Assembly: GCA_965247665.1 (NCBI GenBank)
Contig: CBDFHH010000002.1
Location: 210,213 to 274,212 of the forward strand
Direction: 5' to 3'
Length of the DNA stretch: 64,000 bases
Origin: Alphaproteobacteria bacterium
GTDB taxonomy: Bacteria; Pseudomonadota; Alphaproteobacteria; SHVV01
Both the position numbers and the translations under genes were made by a program. The notes under the pieces are model-generated. The model was not told the DNA's origin. It did not search any database and worked only from the letters and a program-made list of their open reading frames with translations. Positions 28,290 to 43,705 of the stretch are shown here, in pieces (position 1 is the stretch's first letter; each line of letters begins with the position of its first letter).

Positions 28290-29696
28290 GTGCCGCGCAG
28301 CGCGCTCCCCTCGATCGATCGCCTGCTGCGGCACAACCGCAGCGAAGCGCTCATCACCAGGTTCGGGCGCGCCGCGACCACCACCGCGCTCAGAACCGCG
28401 GTTGCCGAAATGCGGAGCGCCCTGGCCGACGAGGACTCGATCGCGGTGTCCGAAACCGGTCTCGTAAAACGCGCCGCTGCGTTGCTCGCTGCCCAGCGGC
28501 GACCTCACCTGCGACCGGTGTTCAACCTCACCGGCACGGTACTGCACACCAATTTGGGCCGCGCCCTGCTACCTCGGGAAGCGGTCGCGGCAATGACGGA
28601 AGCGGCGACGTGTGCGACCAATCTTGAGTTCGACCTCGATCGTATGCGCCGCGGCGACCGCGACGACCATATCGAGGACGAGTTGCGCGAACTCACCGGT
28701 GCCGATGCGGCAACGGTGGTCAATAACAACGCCGCGGCGGTGCTGCTGGTGCTCAACAGTCTGGCGCAACGCAAGCAAGTGCCGATATCGCGCGGCGAGC
28801 TGATCGAGATCGGCGGTGCGTTCCGTATCCCCGAGGTCATGGCCCGCGCCGGCGCCAAGCTGCGCGAAGTCGGCACGACCAACCGCACGCATCTCGAAGA
28901 CTACGCCGAGGCGATCAGCTCCTCGACAGGGCTGGTGATGAAGGTTCATCCGAGCAACTTCGAGGTGCAAGGGTTCACCGCCGCCGTCGCGGAGACCGAT
29001 CTCGCGGCGCTGTGCCGCGAGCGCGGGGTGCCGTTTGTCGTCGACCTCGGCAGCGGCGCCCTCACCGATCTCAGCCGCTTCGGCCTGCCCCATGAACCGA
29101 CGCCGGCGGAAACGCTGGCGGCGGGGGCCGACATCGTCACCTTCAGCGGCGACAAGCTGCTCGGAGGGCCCCAGGCCGGTATCATCGTCGGTCGCGGCGA
29201 TCTCGTCGCCCGGATCAAGCGCAACCCCATGAAGCGGGCGCTGCGCTGCGACAAGGTCACGCTGGCCGCGCTGTCGGCGGTGCTGCGGCTATACCGCGAT
29301 CCCGACCGCCTCGCTGAACGCATCCCGACGCTTCGCCTGCTGTCACGCTCCGCCGAGGAACTCGCCGCCCTCGCCGAGAGGATCGCAAAGGCACTGGCGC
29401 CTGCCCTCTCCGAAGTTGCGGCGATCGAGATCGTCGATTGCCGGAGCCAGATCGGCAGCGGCGCGTTGCCGACCAAAACCGTCCCCAGCAAGGGACTGGC
29501 CTTGCGGCCCATCACCGGCAAACCCGGCAGCGGCACCGTGCTCAAGCGCCTGCTCGCGGGTTTTCGCGACCTGCCGGTTCCGGTTCTCGGTCACGTGCAT
29601 GACGGTGCACTGGTATTCGATCTGCGTTGTCTCGAAGACGAGGCCCGATTCACCGGCCAGCTCGCGCAGCTTTCGTTCGCGCGGAGTCGGTCATGA
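28290..29696 (+). CDS. selA: L-seryl-tRNA(Sec) selenium transferase
   Basis: N-terminus LPSIDRLLR and PLP-lysine motif [13 protein letters not shown]. 468 aa. Confidence 0.9.
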
Positions 29697-31690
29697 TTAT
29701 CGCCACCGCCGGTCACGTCGATCACGGCAAGACCTTGTTGATTCGGGCGCTCACCGGTATCGATACCGACCGCCTGCCCGAGGAAAAGCAGCGCGAGATG
29801 ACCATCGATCTCGGCTTCGCCTACCTGCCGCTGCAGGCGGACCGGTCGATCGCGTTCATCGACGTGCCCGGGCACGAGCGTTTCATTCGCAACATGCTGT
29901 GCGGCGTTGCCGGCATCGATTTCGTCGTGTTGGTGGTCGCCGCCGACGACGGCATCATGCCGCAGACCCGTGAACATTTGGCGATCCTCGACCTGCTCGG
30001 GGTCACCGACGGCGTCGTCGCTTTGACCAAGATCGACCGCGTCCACAACGACCGCGTCGAGACCGTGACGGGCGAAGTCGGGAACCTGTTGGCCCCGACC
30101 ACCTTGGCCAATGCCCGAATATACCCGGTTTCGGCCGCGACCGGCGCAGGCATCGACGAGCTTCAGTCGCACATCGTCGCGGCAGGCCGCGCGTGGTCGC
30201 CGGCCCCGATGCGCGGTGCATTCCGCCTCGCCGTCGATCGCTGCTTCCATGTCATCGGCGCCGGGGTCGTGGTCACCGGCACCGTGTTCGCCGGCACCGC
30301 CGCCGTTGGCGACGAATTGTTGGTGCAGTCCAAAGATCTGCCGCTGCGCGTGCGCGGCCTTCACGCCAACAACCGCGCCGCGCCCCAAACTCGGTCAGGC
30401 CAGCGCTGTGCTCTCAACATCGCCGGTCAAGGGGTTACCCGCCGGACTGTTACACGCGGCGACTGGATCGTCGCTCCGCCGTGCGCCGCGCCGGTGCGCC
30501 GCCTCGATACGCGTTTGCGCGTGCTCACCTCCGAGCACCGCCCGTTCGCGCATTGGACGCCGGTTCACGTTCACCTCGGTGCCGCCGAAACCACCGGCCG
30601 CGTCGCTGTGCTCGAGGGCAAGGAGCTAGCGCCGGGCTCGGACGCCCTCGCCCAGCTCTACCTCGATCATCCCGTCGGTGCCTGCCATGGCGACTGTTTC
30701 ATCGTGCGCGACCAATCGGCGCGGCGGACGATCGGCGGCGGACATGTCATCGATATCCACCCGCCCGCGCGCGGTCGCGCCAGGCCGGAGCGGCTCGCCG
30801 CCCTCGCCGCCATGGACGTGGCCGATCCCGCGGCAGCGCTGTCGGCCCTGCTTGCGGCCACGCCGAACGGGATCGAGCTCACCGCGTTTCGCAACGCGCG
30901 CAATCTGACCGGTCGTGAAGCCGAGGCGGTTTTCGAGGCCGTTCCGCACCGCCGTGTCGCCCGCCGAGGCGGCGCGCGCGCTTTCTCCGCCAGCCACTGG
31001 CAGCATTGGCGCGAAACGGCGCTCGCTAACCTCGCCGCCTGGCACCGATCCTCGCCTGCCAACCCCGGCCTACCGGAAAAGCAGCTGCTCGCCGGGTCGG
31101 GCCTGCGGACACCGGCCGAAGTCAGCGCGACCCTGGCGCGCGAACTAGCCGACCGGGGCACCGTGGTGCGCGAGGGGGCCGTGGTGCGATTGCCGACTCA
31201 CGACGCCGCGCCGGCGTCCGGCGAGAGGGTACTGGGGCAACGTATCGATGCCATGCTGGACGAAACCGGCCGGGTTCCTCCAACTTTGCACGAGCTGGCC
31301 GAGGCGCTGCAAACCAGCGTGCGCAAGATCGAGAAACTTCTGCTTTCCTCGGCTCGCCGCCGCGGCCTCGCACGGGTCGGAGCGAACCGGTTCTTCAAAC
31401 GCGCCACGCTGCGCGATCTCGGAACCGTCGCCGAACAGCTCGCTGCCGGGTCGGCGGACGGCCGTTTCAGCGTCAAGGAGTTTCGCGATCACGCCGGCAT
31501 CGGACGCAATCTCGCCATCGACGTGCTGGAGCATTTCGACGCGGTGAAATTCACGCGACGGGTTGGTGATGGGCGCGAGATCGTGCGGCCGCTTGCCCAG
31601 GTATTCGCTTCCGATCAAGATGGCCGGGACGGCACGGACCAGGGAAAAGAATCGCACCCCGGTGGGGCGCCCGGACTTCAAATCCGGTGA
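29693..31690 (+). CDS. selB: selenocysteine-specific elongation factor
   Basis: G-domain motifs [15 protein letters not shown] and TKID, plus winged-helix C-terminal repeats. ATG 29693 overlaps the selA stop (ATGA). The last 48 nt overlap tRNA-Sec. Confidence 0.9.
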
Positions 31691-31738
31691 GGGGCGTTCG
31701 ACGTCCCTGGTGGGTTCGACTCCCACTCTTTTCCGCCA
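31643..31738 (+). tRNA. selC: tRNA-Sec (anticodon UCA)
   Basis: 96 nt. 8-bp acceptor GGAAAAGA/TCTTTTCC, anticodon loop CTTCAAA, long variable arm, 4-bp T-stem TGGG-TTCGACT-CCCA, G-CCA end. Collinear with E. coli selC. Confidence 0.9.
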
Positions 31739-31982
31739 TGCCGCGCTCCAAATGCCGATAACGACCACCACCTGATCGACCCGCCGCATGCCGCCGTCAT
31801 CCTCGAACGGCGGTTCATGGACGAGTGGGCGCCATGGTACGGAACGCAGGGCGAAGCGGGACGCGCCGGCTTGTCTCGCCGCGTGCAACCAACGCGATCG
31901 CCTGCCGATCTCCCTGATCGCGCCGAATCCGGCAGGTGAGGTCGGCTTGACCGCTACAGGGGCGGCGCGCTACGAGGACGGC

Positions 31983-32462
31983 ATGGCCGAGAAACTTGGC
32001 GTTGGCGCGACCTTCCCGACCTTCCCTTTGGCCCTCGTTGACGGACGCACGATCACGCTGGCCGGGCAGCTCGAGGGCCGTTATCGCGTCATCCTGTTTT
32101 ATCGCGGTCATTGGTGACCGCATTGTCGCCGGCAGTTAGCCGGCTTCGAGGGACGCAAACAGGAGCTCGATGATCTCGACATCAGCGTGATCGCGGGCAG
32201 CATCGATCCCATCGACCAAGCCCGCGAGGTCGCCGACGAGGTTTCGTTTCCCATCGCCTACGAAGTACCGCGCGAGGTCGCCGATGCGCTGGGCTCGTGG
32301 TGGGAAGACCGGCGCGGAATTATCCAGCCGTCGGAATTTCTAATTGGCAGCCACGGCAAGGTGGTGTGCTCGAGCTACAGCGACGGACCTATCGGCCGCT
32401 TCGACGCCAAAGCGCTGATCGGCTTGGTGAGGTTCTACGAATCCCAGGCGGCCAAGTCCTAG
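31983..32462 (+). CDS. Prx-like/AhpC-TSA-family thiol:disulfide oxidoreductase selenoprotein (in-frame UGA at 32115-32117, redox motif U-P-H-C)
   Basis: ORFs 31788..32117 and 32187..32462 are in the same frame and joined by an open frame across one TGA. The joined product reads ...RVILFYRGHW-U-PHCRRQLAGF..., the F-x-R-G-x-W-C-P-x-C context of redoxin-type proteins. A hairpin lies 11 nt downstream of the UGA. The gene sits directly after selC. Confidence 0.75.
32128..32144 (+). promoter_or_regulatory. SECIS-like hairpin (GCCGGC-AGUUA-GCCGGC)
   Basis: 6-bp GC stem with a 5-nt loop containing GU. The loop G is at about +21 from the U of UGA, close to the fdhF SECIS spacing. Confidence 0.55.
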
Positions 32463-32510
32463 ACCGGAACCAGATTAGATCCACGGCAACGGTCGTCGCC
32501 GCCGAGCCGA

Positions 32511-34757
32511 TCAGAGCTTCACCGCTACCGGCCGCGCGCTGCCGTTACCCGGCCCGACCGATCCGATCACCGCGCTGTCGCTATAGCCCAGCGCGCGCAG
32601 CTCGGCGAGGCATGCGTCGCCCCGGTGGTCGGGTACGCCGGCCAACAGGCCGCCGGCGGTCTGCGGGTCGAACAGGAGCCGGATGCGTCGATCGTTGGTG
32701 TCGAAACCATCAAGGTTGGTGGTGGCTTCGCCTTGGGCGGCATTGCTGGCCTGGAGCGAAGATTCGATCCCGGCGGCCAGACTCTCCGCAGCGCCTTCCA
32801 GCGCCGGCACCGCGTCCGCATCCAGCACGACGCTCACCTCCCCCGGCTTGACCATCTCGGCGAGATGGCCGGCGAGGCCAAAGCCGGTGACGTCGGTGCA
32901 GGCGGTCGCGCCGTGGCGCATGAGGCAGGCGGCGGCCTCGCGGTTCGACTTGAGCATCGAGGCGACCGCCCCGGCGATCCAGCTCCCTTTGGCCTTGCCT
33001 CGCATTTCGGCGGCGAACAGCGTACCGGTGCCGATGCCCTTGGTCAGGATTAGGCGCTGGCCCGGGCGCAGGTCGCTCTTGCGCAGCAAACGGGTTTCTT
33101 CAGCCAGGCCGTTGACCGAGAATCCCAAGGCCAGCTCAGCGCCTTCGCCGCTGTGGCCGCCGATCAGCTGGGCGCCGGCTTCGCATAGAACTTCGCCCGC
33201 ACCGGTCAGCAGCTGGGTCAGCGTGTCCTCGATTCTGAGTTCGAGGCCGAAGGGGATCGTCACGATGGCAAGCGCGGTCTGCGGCTCAGCCCCCATCGCG
33301 TAGATATCGTTGAGGCAGTGGTGAGCGGTGATCTTGCCGAACAGATAGGGGTCGTCGACCATCGACCGGAAGGAATCGACGGTTTGCACCAGCACCATCC
33401 CCGGCGGCACAGTCACCACCGCGGCGTCGTCGGGGCAGTCGAGGCCGATCAGGACGTCGTTACGGTGGATCCCGTTGATCTTGGCAATAACCCTTGCGAG
33501 GACCGGCGCCGGGATCTTCGCGCCGCAGCCACCGCAGCGCATAGCTGACGCCCGCACCGCGGCCCTGACCTGGACCGTGTCGAGTCCCGCCGGCAGCTGT
33601 AGCGGTGTCGGTTCCGGCATTGCCGGCAGATCGTTGAACCTGCGCATGAACCGGCGGTCAATCCAATCCTTCCAACGCCACGCCCAGCGGCCTTCGAGCG
33701 ACCAATTGGCGCGGGAGGCGATGGCGTGTTGGGGTCCAGTCGATATCAGGCTGAGGAAGCGTCGTTGCGGCGCGAACGGCCGCGGCGTTCGGCCAAGCAC
33801 GGCGCGGCGCAGGTTGCGGACGAGCGGCCGTCCCTGCCGCACCGCAAACACCCCCGATTTCGGCCGTGGGTGATTGACCGCGACGGCCGCATCGCCGGCG
33901 CCGAACACGTTATCGTGCGACGTCGAGCGCAGACAGTCGTCGATTTGGAGAAACCCCCGCTGGTCGACCGCAAGACCGGATTCCCGCAACCAGGGCGGTG
34001 CCGCCGCCTGCGTCACCCACAGGATCTCGTCGAGCGCGATTGTTCCGCCGCTGCCATCGTGCAGCTCCCCCGGCCTCACCTCGGTGACGTGAAAACGGGT
34101 GTGGATCTGCACGCCGATCCGTTCGAGGTGGCGGCGCACACGTCGGGCGGCGTCACGGCCGTGGCCGATCAGCAGATCGGGTTCTTCGGTTACCAGGCAA
34201 AACGCGTGATTGGCCTCGTTTCGGAGCCGATGCGCGACGGCCAACATCAGCTCGACGCCGCCGGCGCCGCCGCCGACCACGCCGATACGGAGACCATCCT
34301 CGTGGGGTCGCACGCGCTCCTGCAATCGCGCCCAATGCGATGCGAAACGGCTGATCGGCTTGACCGGCACGGTGTGTTCGGCGGCGCCAGGGATATCGGC
34401 AGTGTTGGGCGTTGATCCCGCGTTGATCGAGACCAGGTCGTAGGGAATGGCGGGGCGGTTGGCGCAGTTCACCAGCTTCGCGTCAAGAACGATGCCGGTG
34501 ACCTCGTCAACGAACAGGCGCGCCCCTGCAAACCGCGCCAGCACCGCCAGGTCGATATGGATGTCGTCGAAGCTATAGTGCCCGGCGATGAAGCCCGGCA
34601 GCATTCCCGAATAGGGCGTGTACGGGTCGGGCGAGACCAAGGTCAGGCGGACGCCGGGGATCGGCTTCATGCCAAAGCGCCGCAGCACGGCGACGTGGGT
34701 GTGGCCGCCGCCGATCAGCACGATGTCCTTGACGATGGGGATGTTGGACCCGTTCAC
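32511..34757 (-). CDS. selD: fusion protein: N-terminal FAD/NAD(P)-binding pyridine-nucleotide-disulfide oxidoreductase (NDH-2-like) + C-terminal selenide, water dikinase
   Basis: 748 aa. N-terminus IVLIGGGHTHV and a second Rossmann motif GVVGGGAGGVE. The C-terminal half starts with MRCGGCGAKIP (Cys-type SelD active site) and continues with an AIR-synthase-like fold. Confidence 0.9.
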   Translation of the reverse strand: MNGSNIPIVKDIVLIGGGHTHVAVLRRFGMKPIPGVRLTLVSPDPYTPYSGMLPGFIAGHYSFDDIHIDLAVLARFAGARLFVDEVTGIVLDAKLVNCANRPAIPYDLVSINAGSTPNTADIPGAAEHTVPVKPISRFASHWARLQERVRPHEDGLRIGVVGGGAGGVELMLAVAHRLRNEANHAFCLVTEEPDLLIGHGRDAARRVRRHLERIGVQIHTRFHVTEVRPGELHDGSGGTIALDEILWVTQAAAPPWLRESGLAVDQRGFLQIDDCLRSTSHDNVFGAGDAAVAVNHPRPKSGVFAVRQGRPLVRNLRRAVLGRTPRPFAPQRRFLSLISTGPQHAIASRANWSLEGRWAWRWKDWIDRRFMRRFNDLPAMPEPTPLQLPAGLDTVQVRAAVRASAMRCGGCGAKIPAPVLARVIAKINGIHRNDVLIGLDCPDDAAVVTVPPGMVLVQTVDSFRSMVDDPYLFGKITAHHCLNDIYAMGAEPQTALAIVTIPFGLELRIEDTLTQLLTGAGEVLCEAGAQLIGGHSGEGAELALGFSVNGLAEETRLLRKSDLRPGQRLILTKGIGTGTLFAAEMRGKAKGSWIAGAVASMLKSNREAAACLMRHGATACTDVTGFGLAGHLAEMVKPGEVSVVLDADAVPALEGAAESLAAGIESSLQASNAAQGEATTNLDGFDTNDRRIRLLFDPQTAGGLLAGVPDHRGDACLAELRALGYSDSAVIGSVGPGNGSARPVAVKL

Positions 34758-35350: not shown

Positions 35351-35872
35351 TCAAACCCGGCATATCGGGTAATTCGGCTGCTTTTCATTCCATGCCTCTA
35401 TTTCATTCCATGCCTCTATATTGAACACCAAGCACTGCTCCACAAACGACCGAACCCAATTTCCAGATTGTGGCCCCTTTATCGGTAACTGTCTTTTCAA
35501 TGCATCAGTTCGTGTGAGCATGTCCGCAGGAGTTAGACTTTCGATGGCGACAAGAACGAAATAGTGGATAGGTTTTTCAGCGTTCCTCGATGCCCATTCA
35601 TAAATAAACGAATCTCGATATTTGTATTTCAGATCTTTGTCCAATTTTCCACTAAGGAAATCACTAATAAACTTCTCGCTATTGGCGGGTTGTGCTCCCG
35701 GCTGTTCCGGGTCTTTAAATTCAATGAAGAGAAGCTTATCGTCCAGTTCAACCACGAAATCTACTGCCTTCATGCAATGCGATAACCCATGGGTGTTTTG
35801 GTTATCAAATTTCTTGGCCTGCGTTCCGCGTGGAAAGGTGATTTGAAGGTTCCCTTCGATAAGCGTGGTCAC
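35351..35872 (-). CDS. 173-aa PD-(D/E)xK-like (restriction-endonuclease-fold) protein, partner of the upstream ATPase
   Basis: GTG start lies 2 nt after the ATPase stop. Motif AVDFVVELDDKLLFIEFKD (D-x12-E-F-K). Low GC. No family assignment is possible by eye. Confidence 0.6.
   Translation of the reverse strand: MTTLIEGNLQITFPRGTQAKKFDNQNTHGLSHCMKAVDFVVELDDKLLFIEFKDPEQPGAQPANSEKFISDFLSGKLDKDLKYKYRDSFIYEWASRNAEKPIHYFVLVAIESLTPADMLTRTDALKRQLPIKGPQSGNWVRSFVEQCLVFNIEAWNEIEAWNEKQPNYPICRV
35384..35419. repeat. perfect 18-bp tandem duplication (TTCATTCCATGCCTCTAT x2) inside the 3' end of the 173-aa ORF
   Basis: Read directly. It encodes a duplicated IEAWNE hexapeptide. Confidence 0.95.
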
Positions 35873-35874
35873 TC

Positions 35875-36891
35875 CTAAATTCCTCTCAAGCTGCGTTTAA
35901 CCTCACGGTCGTACAGATCGGCAAAGGCTTCGGCGATTGTATTTGGATGTATGTCCAGATAGCTATGCCCGGTATGACAAGCTATCTCTTTGCTTTCTGG
36001 ATCTCTGTAAAGAGAATGAAAGGAAACTTTATCACCGTCCTTCGTTCTTAGATCAAATTCCTTTAGAATCACATAGTCGTGCGTTGCCAGAAAGATTTGC
36101 ACCCCTGCTCGCTGTAATGTAAGGAAAATTTCTATCAAAGAACCGAATAACTTTGGATTTAAGTTAGTTTCAGGTTCATCCCAAAACAACACAGATCCTT
36201 TGAGAAGGGCGCCATTCTGGATTAGAAGCCACAACAAACCAAGTTTACGCATACCCTCCGCAAGCAAGGAAAACTCAAGATTACCCTGCCGATTCCTGAG
36301 GAAAAATTCTTCTTCTTTTGTCGTGACCTTCCCTTCCATAATATCCTGCAAGATCGAGAGTAATTTTTTCCGATCTCTATCCACCGGGCCTCTTAATGGT
36401 GGCCGGTATGCGCGGGTAAGGATGTCTGCATACACCGCTTCAAAATGTATTTCGCGTTGTGAATAGAGAGAGCGGAATCCGGGCGCATTTGCGAGCATTT
36501 CTTTTACAGGGATGTAAACGCTTTCAATGGGGGCCTCGGCCCAATTTTTCGCACCAATGACCCTGGCAGAATCAGGAACGGTTCCGTGATTGGAGAACGA
36601 AACCCTAAGTTTTTTATTGTCTCGGAATACTTCGAGGGCACATCGCGAGCTGGTTTTATGGCGCTTTACTAATCGTCCAATGGCTCTTCCTGACGGTAAG
36701 AATATCTGAATGAGCTTTTCGGCGATGGCGACCTTTGTTTTGCTGACGTCACAGGCTGTATACGCAACCTTCATAATGTGCGTCTTACCGGTTCCGTTGG
36801 CACCAACAAGAACGTTGATTCCCGGTGACGCCATAAAATCAAGTTTCTCGAATGCTGTGAAACGCTCAAACTTCACTCTCGTGATTGTCAT
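35875..36891 (-). CDS. stand-alone ABC-type (AAA_15/AAA_21-like) ATPase, 338 aa
   Basis: Walker A GANGTGKT, signature-like LLAEGMRKLG, Walker B VLFWDEPETNLNP, H-loop LATHD. ATG 36891 follows AGGGG (a TTG at 36915 is also open). No additional domain. Confidence 0.8.
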   Translation of the reverse strand: MTITRVKFERFTAFEKLDFMASPGINVLVGANGTGKTHIMKVAYTACDVSKTKVAIAEKLIQIFLPSGRAIGRLVKRHKTSSRCALEVFRDNKKLRVSFSNHGTVPDSARVIGAKNWAEAPIESVYIPVKEMLANAPGFRSLYSQREIHFEAVYADILTRAYRPPLRGPVDRDRKKLLSILQDIMEGKVTTKEEEFFLRNRQGNLEFSLLAEGMRKLGLLWLLIQNGALLKGSVLFWDEPETNLNPKLFGSLIEIFLTLQRAGVQIFLATHDYVILKEFDLRTKDGDKVSFHSLYRDPESKEIACHTGHSYLDIHPNTIAEAFADLYDREVKRSLRGI

Positions 36892-37702
36892 GCACTTCCC
36901 CTGGCCAGTGCTCAAGGAGCTCCCCGTTCGACATGCTAATTCATGAATTGCGCGGCTTCTATCAATCTGACAAGCGAAAAGGATTCAGTGTTGCTTCGAG
37001 GCATTCGATCTACGCTCCAAGACTTTGCACGTAGGGGCGATTGACGAGGCGGGAATTGGGAGTGCTTTTGCGATATCTCCTGGACCAGACACGGTTCGAC
37101 GCCGCGCTGGCGGAGCCATCTCGATACCTGCACGCGGTACAACTGGGCGGATTATCTAAGAACATTCGCAGCAGCCTACGGGGTCGAAGCGTGAGCCGAC
37201 CAAGTTGGGTTACCATACGGCCCGCGTTCGTGTGTCGCTCGGGAGAGAACTGCGTGGCGAAATCTTGGTCTCGAAAGCTATAGCGCCACTCATCCTGGCG
37301 CCCGCCAAGGCCTGCCGTGCGCTCAATCGCCGGGCAGACTCCGAATAACTTTCCTCGTCGTACCCGGATTATCGTGTCGCTCTTCCTTTCAGCGGGCGCC
37401 ATCTAGACATTCCTTCGGAATGTTGAAACAGGGACACGACAGCCGCGCGCTACACCATGACTACTGACCGGAAGCAGACCGGAACTGGCGCCGATCGCTT
37501 TAGATTCTAGCCGGACGCGGACGGACTTAATGCCCGATCCCGTCATGATTTCCCCGTGTTCGAATCGAATTCGTTTCGAAAACGCGACGGCGCAACGGCG
37601 CGACGACAAGTAGTCGGATAGCGTGGTAACGTTGGAGCCGCATTTGGAGTGCGATCAGAGAAGGCTAAAGGAGCCAAGATGACCGTCCCTCCGAACATGT
37701 GA

Positions 37703-41361: not shown

Positions 41362-43705
41362 TTAGTTGGAAGCGGGATCGGGCGGAACCACGAAGATCTG
41401 GTCAGGATAGATCAGGTGGGGATCGCTGATCTGCTCGGCGTTGGCCGCGAATATCAGAGTGTATTTGATGCCCATCCCGTAAGTCGCACGGGCGATGCGC
41501 CACAGACTGTTGCCGGGCTTAATCACGACCGTGCCAGGTGCCAGCGCGCCGGGTTTGATCGTCGCGCGACTGAACGCCAGGTTGAGCTTAGCCAACACGA
41601 CGCCGCCCTCGTCGACCTCCTCGATCCGAATCGCGTGTTGGCCGGATATCACGGGCTCGGATGGCGAGATCTGCCAGTCGCCGGCGGCGTCGGTCTCCCC
41701 CGTGCCCACGGTCTGATCGTCAAACTTGGCGTGGACCTCGCTGCCCGGCGTTGCCTTACCCGACAGCACCACCCGGCCTTCGTCGTCATAGTCGATGACT
41801 TTAAGGCTGAGATCCTCTCCGGTCTTTTCCTCCTCCGGTTTCGCCAACTCGGCCCCCTCCGCAGCCGTGGGCGGCGCGTCGGTCGTGGCTGGGGAGGAGT
41901 CCTGCGATGCGCCGGGTTTCGCTTGCGGATCGGGGTCCTTGACGGTCTCGGCCGGTTTGGGTGGTGGCGGCGCCTGCAGCAACTTACTGCCGCCGCCCTC
42001 GCGCGGCGTCAACACCACGACGGGAGCGCGCTGCTCGCCCTCGCCCTTGGGCGTCTTCCCCGGTACGAACAGCACCACCACGTCCTTGGACGATTTCCGC
42101 TCGCCCGCCACGGTCTTCTGTTCCAGGCTCAACTGACGGGCGCCGCTCGGTAACGGTTTTTCCGGCACCAATACCCACTCGCCACGCTCGTCCGCGGTCA
42201 CCTTGCCGACCACGTTGCCGGCATCCTTGACGGTCACCTCGGCGCCGGGATCGGCCCGCCCGGCGATGACCGCATCGCCTTGGGGGTTGACCCGGACAAC
42301 ATCAAAGCTGGGCGGCTTGGCCTCGCTCTCCTGCCGTGCCGTGGGTTCGGCTGCTTCCGTCTTCGCGGTTTCGGGCGGCGACGGCTCGGCCGCCGGCGAC
42401 ACCGCTTCGGCAACCACCGTCTCTTGCCGCGCCGTGGGTTCGGTCGCCTCCGTCTTTGCGGTCTCGGTTGTCGGCGATGCCGCCTCGGTTGTAGCCGGCG
42501 CTTGGTCGGCCATCGCCGTCTCTTGCCGCGCCGCGGGTTCGGCTGCCTTCGTCTTCGCGGTTTCGGTCGTCGGCGGTGCCGCGTCGGCCATCGCCGTCTC
42601 TTGCGGCGCCGCAGGCTCGGCTGCCTCCGTCTTCGCGATTTCGGTCGTCGTCGGCGCCGCGTCGGCCACCGCCGTCTCTTGCGGCGCCGCAGTGTCGGCC
42701 GCCTTCATCTCCGCGGTCTCGGTTGTCGGCGGCGCCGCGTCGGCCATCGCCGTCTCTTGCTGCGCCGTAGGCTCGGCTGCCTTCATCTTCGCGATTTCGG
42801 TCGTCGTCGGCGCCGCGTCGGCCACCGCCGTCTCTTGCGGCGCCGCAGTGTCGGCCGCCTTCATCTCCGCGGTCTCGGTTGTCGGCGGCGCCGCGTCGGC
42901 CCGCGTCGGCCACCGCCGTCTCTTGCGGCGCCGTAGGCTCGGCTGCCTTCATCTTCGCGATTTCGGTCGTCGTCGGCGCTGCGCCGGCCACCGCCGTCTC
43001 TTGCTGCACCGCAGGCTCGGCTGCCTCCGTCTTCGCGATTTCGGTCGTCGTCGGCGCCGCGTCGGCCACCGCCGTCTCTTGCGGCGCCGCAGTGTCAGCC
43101 GCCTTCATCTCCGCGGTCTCGGTTGTCGGCGGCGCCGCGTCGGCCATCGCCGTCTCTTGCGGCGCCGCAGGCTCGGCTGCCTTTGTCTTCGTGGGGTCGG
43201 TTGTCGGTGACACCGCGTCGGCCATCGCCGTCTCTTGCTGCGCCGTAGGCTCGGCTGCCTTCATCTCTGCGGTCTCGGTCGCCGGCGACACCGCGTCGGC
43301 AACCACCGTTTCTTGCGGCGCCGCAGGCTCGGCTGCCTCCGTCTTCGCGGTTTCGGTTGTCGGCGGCGCCGCGTCGGCCATCGCCGTCTCTTGCGACGCC
43401 GCAGTGTCAGCCGCCTTCATCTCCGCGGTCTCGGTTGTCGGCGGCACCGCGTCGGCCATCGCCGTCTCTTGCGGCGCCGCAGTGTCAGCCGCCTTCATCT
43501 CCGCGGTCTCGGTTGTCGGCGGCGCCGCGTCGGCCATCGCCGTCTCTTGCGGCGCCGCAGGCTCGGCTGCCTTCGTCTTCGCGGTCTCGGTTGACGCCGG
43601 TGCCGTGTCACCCGCTCCCGGTCCAAACCGGAACGCATCTAAATAGATGGCGGCAACGACCGCAACGATCACCACGACCAGACTGGCGATGAGGGTTCCG
43701 CGCAA
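41362..43705 (-). pseudogene. membrane-anchored, repeat-rich LysM-domain protein, interrupted by a +1 frameshift (10-bp tandem duplication at 42891-42910)
   Basis: ORF 42302..43705 holds the TM anchor plus 26-aa repeats. ORF 41362..42864 holds more repeats, two Ig-like segments and a C-terminal LysM (VIKPGNSLWRIARATYGMGIKYTLIFAANAEQISDPHLIYPDQIF). The two join if one copy of CCGCGTCGGC is removed. Confidence 0.75.
42325..43588. repeat. about sixteen tandem 78-bp (26-codon) coding repeats, consensus peptide ETA(K/E)(T/M)KAAEPAAPQETAMADAAPPTT
   Basis: Periodicity read from the translation of both ORF halves. Confidence 0.9.

Follow-up and report, generated by a model that had tools for sequence, protein, structure and literature searches.

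The gene treated here, named prxL by us, lies at positions 31983–32462 on the plus strand of a 64,000-nucleotide (nt) stretch of DNA from an alphaproteobacterium (GenBank assembly GCA_965247665.1, contig CBDFHH010000002.1, positions 210,213 to 274,212). This whole stretch is called the window. It is highly probable that prxL is a selenoprotein gene, in which an in-frame UGA is decoded as selenocysteine (Sec) with the help of a functional selenocysteine insertion sequence (SECIS). The presence of TGA at the site in 81 of 81 sequences, the covariation of the hairpin and the frozen synonymous sites all exceed chance. The product appears to be a 159-residue cytoplasmic thiol:disulfide oxidoreductase of the Prx-like 1 type, with a UxxC redox centre on a peroxiredoxin (Prx) scaffold.

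Translation of 31983–32462 gave one open frame of 160 codons, including the terminal TAG (32460–32462), and its sole internal stop is the TGA. A first-pass annotation, made from the letters of the window, had claimed that two halves of a gene lie in one frame with only this TGA between them, and that reading through yields 159 amino acids (aa). Both claims were correct, with the TGA at codon 45. The list of open reading frames (ORFs) splits the gene into 31788–32117 and 32187–32462, both in the same frame; the GTG at 32187 is 204 nt from the prxL ATG and in frame with it. The in-frame ATG at 31788 was ruled out as the start of prxL because the orthologues begin at the same M-x-x-K-L, several of them with a stop codon just upstream.

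Elsewhere in the window, TGA is an ordinary stop codon. It closes selA, selB, the SelD fusion and 25 of the 65 long ORFs, so it is not reassigned genome-wide. A strict scan of the window for UGA, hairpin and read-through returned eight sites, and only the one at 32115 had a plausible protein context. For further selenoproteins within the 64 kb, this is a weak negative. A permissive motif scan gave ~500 matches and was set aside as uninformative.

Orthologous loci were collected by scanning one genome per species (GTDB representatives), and the best 80 of 290 relatives were kept. These loci come from Alphaproteobacteria (Rhodospirillaceae, Hyphomicrobiaceae, Defluviicoccus and marine clades) and from metagenome-assembled genomes (MAGs) of Betaproteobacteria/Burkholderiales. 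All 80 carry TGA at the homologous codon, within the motif FYRGHW-U-P-[YFH]-C-RRQL. The alignment is conserved on both sides of the UGA, and purifying selection acts before and after it.

A search of a 5.8-billion-protein collection gave 544 relatives, and the counts that follow refer to the 120 listed. Most of these (105 of 120) are 98–109 aa long and align to roughly the last two-thirds of the query only. Each of the short homologues that was read at the sequence level starts just past the Sec codon. At the Sec site, seven full-length entries have cysteine (Cys) in the context GHW-C-PxC (P0001, P0003, P0004, P0019, P0022, P0023 and P0026), seven full-length entries have tryptophan (P0005–P0007, P0015–P0017 and P0020) and one has arginine. 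Four Cys forms were compared in DNA, and they carry TGC or TGT at the Sec codon (TGT in L081, TGC in L082; also L084 and L085). Only one of the 'W' entries was checked in DNA (L086:651); it has TGA, translated under another genetic code. The 'W' entries probably stem from gene calls on short contigs with a code in which TGA is Trp. The 'R' entry is metagenomic (L087:1367) and has CGA at the site. The C-terminal part of its protein is unlike the family, which is the pattern expected of a frameshift; a pseudogene or an error of assembly is the probable explanation.

An alignment to homologues had been proposed as a check of the read-through. It turned out in favour: Cys homologues place their Cys at the UGA, conservation runs on downstream, and the Pfam domain spans both halves. 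With Cys put at the TGA, Pfam AhpC-TSA covers residues 7–128 (expectation value E 5e-21), and Redoxin also matches (E 2.5e-12). The expectation that standard gene callers would split or truncate the gene also held. In the public gene calls of the relative L083 (98% nucleotide identity), prxL is recorded as two genes of 44 and 108 aa, and most listed homologues cover only a C-terminal part.

A SECIS-like hairpin 3' of the UGA had been noticed in the first-pass annotation, and it is present. Its stem starts after a gap of 10 nt from the UGA and its loop after a gap of 16 nt. The isolated 17-nt hairpin folds with −11.6 kcal/mol (z = −3.9 against shuffles). The fold of the 51-nt stretch 3' of the UGA does not stand out among shuffles (z = −0.9), so the single sequence alone would be weak evidence for the hairpin. 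The published constraints on bacterial SECIS (bSECIS) elements, as given in PMC13188914, are a loop of 3–9 nt, a stem of 4–16 bp, a G as the first or second loop base, a UGA-to-loop distance of 16–37 nt and a minimum free energy no higher than −7.5 kcal/mol. The hairpin agrees with all of them: it has 6 bp and a 5-nt loop whose second and third bases are G and U, and both its distance and its energy are within range.

The informative data are the isolated hairpin and the comparison across species. An alignment of 76 distinct sequences was gap-free around the site, with the helix in columns 23–28 and 34–39. Standard pairs fill 97.1% of the helix cells, compared with 5–54% after a shift of the 3' strand by one to three columns. 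Compensatory double changes occur in three of the six stem pairs, and the covariation score was reached by none of 500 shuffles. RNAalifold found the same helix independently. It also proposed a 5' mini-helix (GGNCAYUGGUGACC), which was discarded, as it never varies and its sequence is fixed by G-H-W-U-P.

Pair 24/38 is CG or GC, and pair 23/39 is GC, GU or UA. Pair 27/35 joins the third base of Arg50 to the second base of codon 53. It is G-U in 36 sequences and A-U in 10, with Val at residue 53; G-C in 14, with Ala; U-A in three, with Asp; and U-G in two, with Gly. Mismatches are U-U (10 sequences, Val) and U-C (one sequence, in which residue 53 is not aligned in register). This composition means that the RNA pair covaries with amino acid 53. 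The hairpin appears to dictate the protein sequence here, with residue 53 being V, A, D or G depending on the third base of Arg50.

Synonymous variation points in the same direction. Across 81 full coding sequences (CDS), the four lowest synonymous entropies in prxL belong to hairpin codons, namely those of Arg49, Gln51, Leu52 and Gly54. Gln51 is always CAG, Leu52 is always TTR and never CTN, Gly54 is mostly GGC, and 77 of 80 sequences use CGC for Arg49. Val at residue 53 is likewise always GTC. The loop is invariant (A-G-U-U-R). The spacer codons 46–48 vary freely. These patterns are direct evidence of a constraint at the RNA level that is limited to the 17-nt hairpin.

By its sequence, prxL belongs to a family that is already in the literature. 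Prx-like selenoproteins have been predicted from ocean metagenomes since 2005 (Sargasso Sea in 2005, Global Ocean Sampling, GOS, in 2008), and the GOS paper lists 'Prx-like 1, pfam00578, UxxC, 225 selenoproteins' (PMC2398784). The string 'FYRGHWU' occurs 23 times in the supplementary sequences of GOS (e.g. JCVI_READ_286511 and JCVI_READ_1161201) and three times in those of the Sargasso Sea study. JCVI_READ_286511 stands directly below the heading '#Prx-like 1' in the GOS supplement. Another GOS Prx-like 1 sequence, JCVI_READ_1091142149754, is 63% identical to the prxL product over 126 residues (E 1e-63), and the Sargasso Prx-like sequences AACY01221093 and AACY01538129 are similar to it, with the same motifs. 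The product of prxL thus combines a PF00578 domain, a UxxC motif and similarity to published members of Prx-like 1. On these sequence grounds, prxL is a further orthologue of a known predicted family and offers little new for specialists. The description of the gene as unannotated is right for this database record; it does not apply to the literature, where family and clade have been published as predicted selenoproteins.

The family assignment in the first-pass annotation, a Prx-like/AhpC-TSA oxidoreductase with a U-x-x-C centre, was confirmed by the PF00578 match and the U-P-H-C motif. No NCBIfam model reaches its cut-off (best 31.9 bits against 140). The NCBIfam peroxiredoxin equivalogs score at most 32 bits against cut-offs of 140–374 (PrxU: 18.9 against 270), and the ResA subfamily model scores 28.7 bits against 170. 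On inspection, the N-terminus (MAEKLGVGATFPTFPLALVDGR) shows no signal peptide or hydrophobic anchor, and the product is presumably cytoplasmic.

The AlphaFold model of P0003, a Cys homologue with 61% identity, has a predicted local distance difference test score (pLDDT) of 90.5 and a predicted template modelling score (pTM) of 0.87. In this model, the Sec/Cys position directly precedes the helix 46–57. The best Foldseek matches of the model in the PDB are Prx1, Bcp and AhpC (template modelling score, TM, 0.76–0.82). In the alignment with Aeropyrum Bcp (2cx3), Arg41 stands at the motif Pro, Sec45 at the Thr/Ser and Cys48 at the peroxidatic Cys. Pro116, which is invariant in the family, stands at the catalytic Arg of Bcp. 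Hence, neither the Prx signature P-x-x-x-T/S-x-x-C nor the catalytic Arg is found in the prxL product in this alignment. W-C-P-H-C and the Pro116 loop match ResA residue for residue, with Pro116 at the proline of LPTTF. We take this proline to be the cis-proline of ResA. The loop of the prxL product that aligns with this conserved LPTTF proline is an invariant Q-P-S.

Several points weigh against prxL being a Sec gene with an oxidoreductase product. The closest Cys forms (L081:5615 and L082:2195) retain an intact SECIS hairpin, which means that the hairpin alone is not strictly diagnostic of the Sec form versus the Cys form. The likeliest explanation is that these two hairpins are fossil SECIS elements left after a recent Sec-to-Cys conversion. 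The hairpin of the Cys form L084 is altered, and the distant Cys form L085 has none (0 kcal/mol). Within the stem, the fifth pair is a U-U mismatch in 10 of 76 orthologues, and much of the remainder is invariant and speaks neither for nor against pairing. Permissive and gathering scans with Rfam returned no SECIS family, only tRNA-Sec and tRNA-Gln. The catalytic function is read from motif and fold only. Moreover, two reviews (2022 and 2026) class the family (PF00578; UxxC, UxxU) as predicted and not experimentally characterised. The terms used are 'predicted' and 'predicted with high confidence', and the reference sequence is WP_010940744.1 (Geobacter).

Other explanations concern the codon and the role of the protein. 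It is extremely unlikely, in our estimate, that the TGA is a true stop, leaving a pseudogene or two small ORFs, or that it is suppressed with Trp or Cys without selenium. Gene callers do give the 44-aa and 108-aa products, and some database entries carry W at the site. However, TGA stands at the identical codon in all 81 sequences from different species, with purifying selection on both sides, a truncated product would lose the active-site nucleophile, and the 'W' entry checked in DNA is a TGA under another code. The use of TGA as the terminator of selA, selB, selD and the long ORFs named above argues against reassignment. An unlikely alternative is that the product is a true peroxidase, in which Sec45 or Cys48 attacks hydroperoxides and thioredoxin recycles the enzyme. 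The fold is closest to Prx1, Bcp and AhpC, Cys48 stands at the peroxidatic Cys of Aeropyrum Bcp, and AhpC-TSA is the top Pfam family. The peroxidase reading is opposed by the absence of the Prx signature and the Arg, with Arg41, Sec45 and Pro116 in their places, and by the exact alignment of W-C-P-H-C and the Pro loop with ResA, a CxxC oxidoreductase. The equivalog scores far below their cut-offs also speak against a peroxidase.

It is very unlikely that the protein acts within selenium metabolism itself, e.g. by passing reduced selenium or redox equivalents to the NADH-oxidoreductase-SelD (Ndh-SelD) fusion. Such a role would fit the linkage to sel genes in 38 of 80 loci, with SelD adjacent in either orientation (same strand in 12, opposite strand in three). 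It would also fit the proposal, made in PMC2432076, that the Ndh domain reduces a selenium compound for SelD. But in 28 of the 59 loci whose flanks reach 3 kb or more in each direction, no sel gene is nearby, and sel neighbours are also missing from the two Cys-form loci whose flanks could be used. Clustering of machinery and selenoprotein gene is also described for fdhA, where PMC5029168 gives co-inheritance as the usual reading.

For prxL as a Sec gene with a UxxC oxidoreductase product, the established bacterial pathway and the fold suggest the following course. As the ribosome meets the UGA, the hairpin would recruit SelB-GTP with Sec-tRNA(Sec). This Sec-tRNA would be made by SelA from the transcript of the adjacent selC, with selenophosphate from the adjacent Ndh-SelD, and Sec would be inserted at the UGA instead of termination. 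In the protein, Sec45 at the N-terminus of helix alpha-1 in the peroxiredoxin-type thioredoxin fold would be the attacking nucleophile. A transient selenenylsulfide between Sec45 and Cys48 (W-U-P-x-C) would then form opposite the Q-P-S loop, with Cys48 as the resolving residue.

Table 1. Positions of prxL, its decoding signals and neighbouring features in the window.
Feature	Position	Strand	Basis or remark
selA, selenocysteine synthase	28290–29696	+	Pfam SelA (E 1e-155) and Se-cys_synth_N
selB, Sec-specific elongation factor	29627–31690	+	Pfam GTP_EFTU, Beta-barrel_SelB, SelB-wing_3; 29627 is the mechanical ORF start
selC, tRNA-Sec, anticodon UCA	31643–31738	+	ARAGORN; Rfam RF01852, 76.3 bits (gathering 47)
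Shine-Dalgarno-like GAGGA (putative)	31974–31978	+	4 nt 5' of the prxL ATG; from sequence
prxL, predicted Prx-like/AhpC-TSA-fold thiol:disulfide oxidoreductase CDS	31983–32462	+	159 codons; name given here
UGA, predicted Sec, residue 45	32115–32117	+	opens the U-P-H-C redox motif (32115–32126)
Predicted bacterial SECIS hairpin, GCCGGC-AGUUA-GCCGGC	32128–32144	+	stem 32128–32133 with 32139–32144, loop 32134–32138
NADH-oxidoreductase-SelD fusion	32511–34757	−	Pfam Pyr_redox_2, AIRS and AIRS_C
HEC-02B	35351–35872	−	E 6e-60
HEC-02A ATPase	35875–36915	−	E 2e-128

The genes for Sec synthesis and insertion (selA, selB, selC and selD) all lie within 4 kb of prxL. The earlier placement of the gene after tRNA-Sec and selA-selB, and convergent with selD, was verified with ARAGORN, Rfam, Pfam and NCBIfam; the gap between the 3' end of selC and the prxL ATG is 244 nt. 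The true start of selB is probably near 29693, as in the gene call of 665 aa in L083. The SelD fusion scores 489 bits with NCBIfam TIGR03169 (cut-off 310) and 294 bits with TIGR00476 selD (cut-off 125), and it fails the NCBIfam model 'fusion_not_SelD'. It is the Cys form and not the Sec form (motif C-G-G-C-G-A-K). Between its stop codon and that of the convergent prxL there are 48 nt. Fusions of this Ndh-SelD type, with the CxxC motif, have already been described (PMC2398784 and PMC2432076).

The selC gene starts 48 nt before the selB stop, so that the last part of the selB CDS lies within selC. When tblastn ends were compared with ARAGORN starts, a similar overlap of ~45 nt was seen in eight orthologous loci (L001, L011, L014, L031, L037, L058, L063 and L068). 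A scan of 31600–32700 for promoters and terminators gave no promoter-like site, and the stretch from selC to prxL holds no terminator. The single terminator-like site lies on the minus strand within selC and is no more than expected by chance. prxL may be co-transcribed with selAB-selC.

Across species, 38 of the 80 orthologous loci have at least one of selA, selB, selC and ndh-selD within the 6-kb flanks. When the count is restricted to loci whose flanks extend for 3 kb or more on each side, a sel gene is nearby in 31 of 59. A tRNA-Sec gene lies 39–240 nt upstream of prxL on the same strand in 13 loci. Keyword searches of selenoprotein papers returned no mention of a direct selC-prxL-selD linkage in the text they covered. 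The simplest explanation for the linkage of prxL to sel genes is that machinery and client are inherited together, and it is plausible that prxL is a client of the adjacent Sec machinery. A further idea is that selA-selB-selC-prxL-(ndh-selD) forms a compact co-inherited selenocysteine module, in which prxL would either be a partner of Ndh-SelD in selenium redox or, for many Alpha- and Betaproteobacteria with an aerobic life, the sole selenoprotein keeping the Sec trait. We regard this as distinctly unlikely.

A hypothetical protein of ~260 aa with a C-A-F-C motif is encoded upstream of prxL in 18 of 80 loci, and in 17 of these the two genes share a strand. In one locus (L005:4666-5448) its gene lies between selC and prxL. 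The protein has no Pfam match. Together with a 116-aa protein and a cupin, it is a conserved neighbour in the orthologous loci and is absent from the window.

Two features of the window lie further from prxL. The segment 34812–38370 (~3.56 kb) has 53% GC compared with 62% for the window and is missing in the otherwise 95–98% identical L083, which has 44 bp there. A gene pair in it matches the PADLOC candidate defence system HEC-02 (Table 1). The segment appears to be a small defence island; its insertion point lies immediately past the ndh-selD start. At 42484–43609, a 78-nt unit is repeated 14.3 times in tandem (84% matches) inside a long ORF. The array probably encodes a 26-residue protein repeat. 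The counterpart of this ORF in L083, an 804-aa gene, has no Pfam match.

With prxL, a family known so far from predictions gains one more well-supported instance. The analysis also provides a clean 81-sequence dataset in which a minimal bacterial SECIS of 17 nt shows covariation, and the recurrent linkage of prxL to the Sec machinery is now documented. The gene is systematically mis-called: it is split into 44-aa and 108-aa parts, truncated at the N-terminus or read through as 'Trp'. As no NCBIfam model reaches its cut-off, automatic annotation will probably go on missing this selenoprotein, which bears an active site and is widespread in alpha- and betaproteobacterial MAGs.

Compared with known systems, prxL stands closest to the Prx-like 1 family. 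The two share the Pfam domain, the UxxC at the same position and the motifs FYRGHW-U-P-Y-C-RRQL ... SWWEDRR-IIQPSEF ... SSYSDGPLGR. The prxL product has His instead of Tyr or Phe at the second x of U-P-x-C, and nothing essential differs. With the canonical peroxiredoxins (Bcp/PrxQ, AhpC and Prx1), the product shares the fold (TM ~0.8), the Pfam family and the position of Cys48 at the peroxidatic Cys. It differs from them in that the Pro and the Arg of the Prx site are replaced and the NCBIfam Prx models score far below cut-off. In contrast to the TxxU selenoprotein peroxiredoxins, the Sec of prxL is three residues further upstream, at the Thr/Ser position, which gives UxxC. The ResA/TlpA/DsbE proteins are alike in W-C-P-x-C, in the Pro loop and in the nucleophile at the N-terminus of helix alpha-1, whereas the prxL product lacks a signal peptide or anchor, has Sec instead of Cys and stays below the cut-off of the ResA model. 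At the RNA level, the element resembles the SECIS of the Escherichia coli fdhF type and the bSECISearch consensus in lying directly 3' of the UGA inside the CDS and in its small apical loop, where G-U occupies positions 2–3, its 16-nt gap between UGA and loop and its 6-bp upper stem. Unlike the fdhF-type SECIS, it is minimal, with 17 nt and neither a conserved lower stem nor a bulged U.

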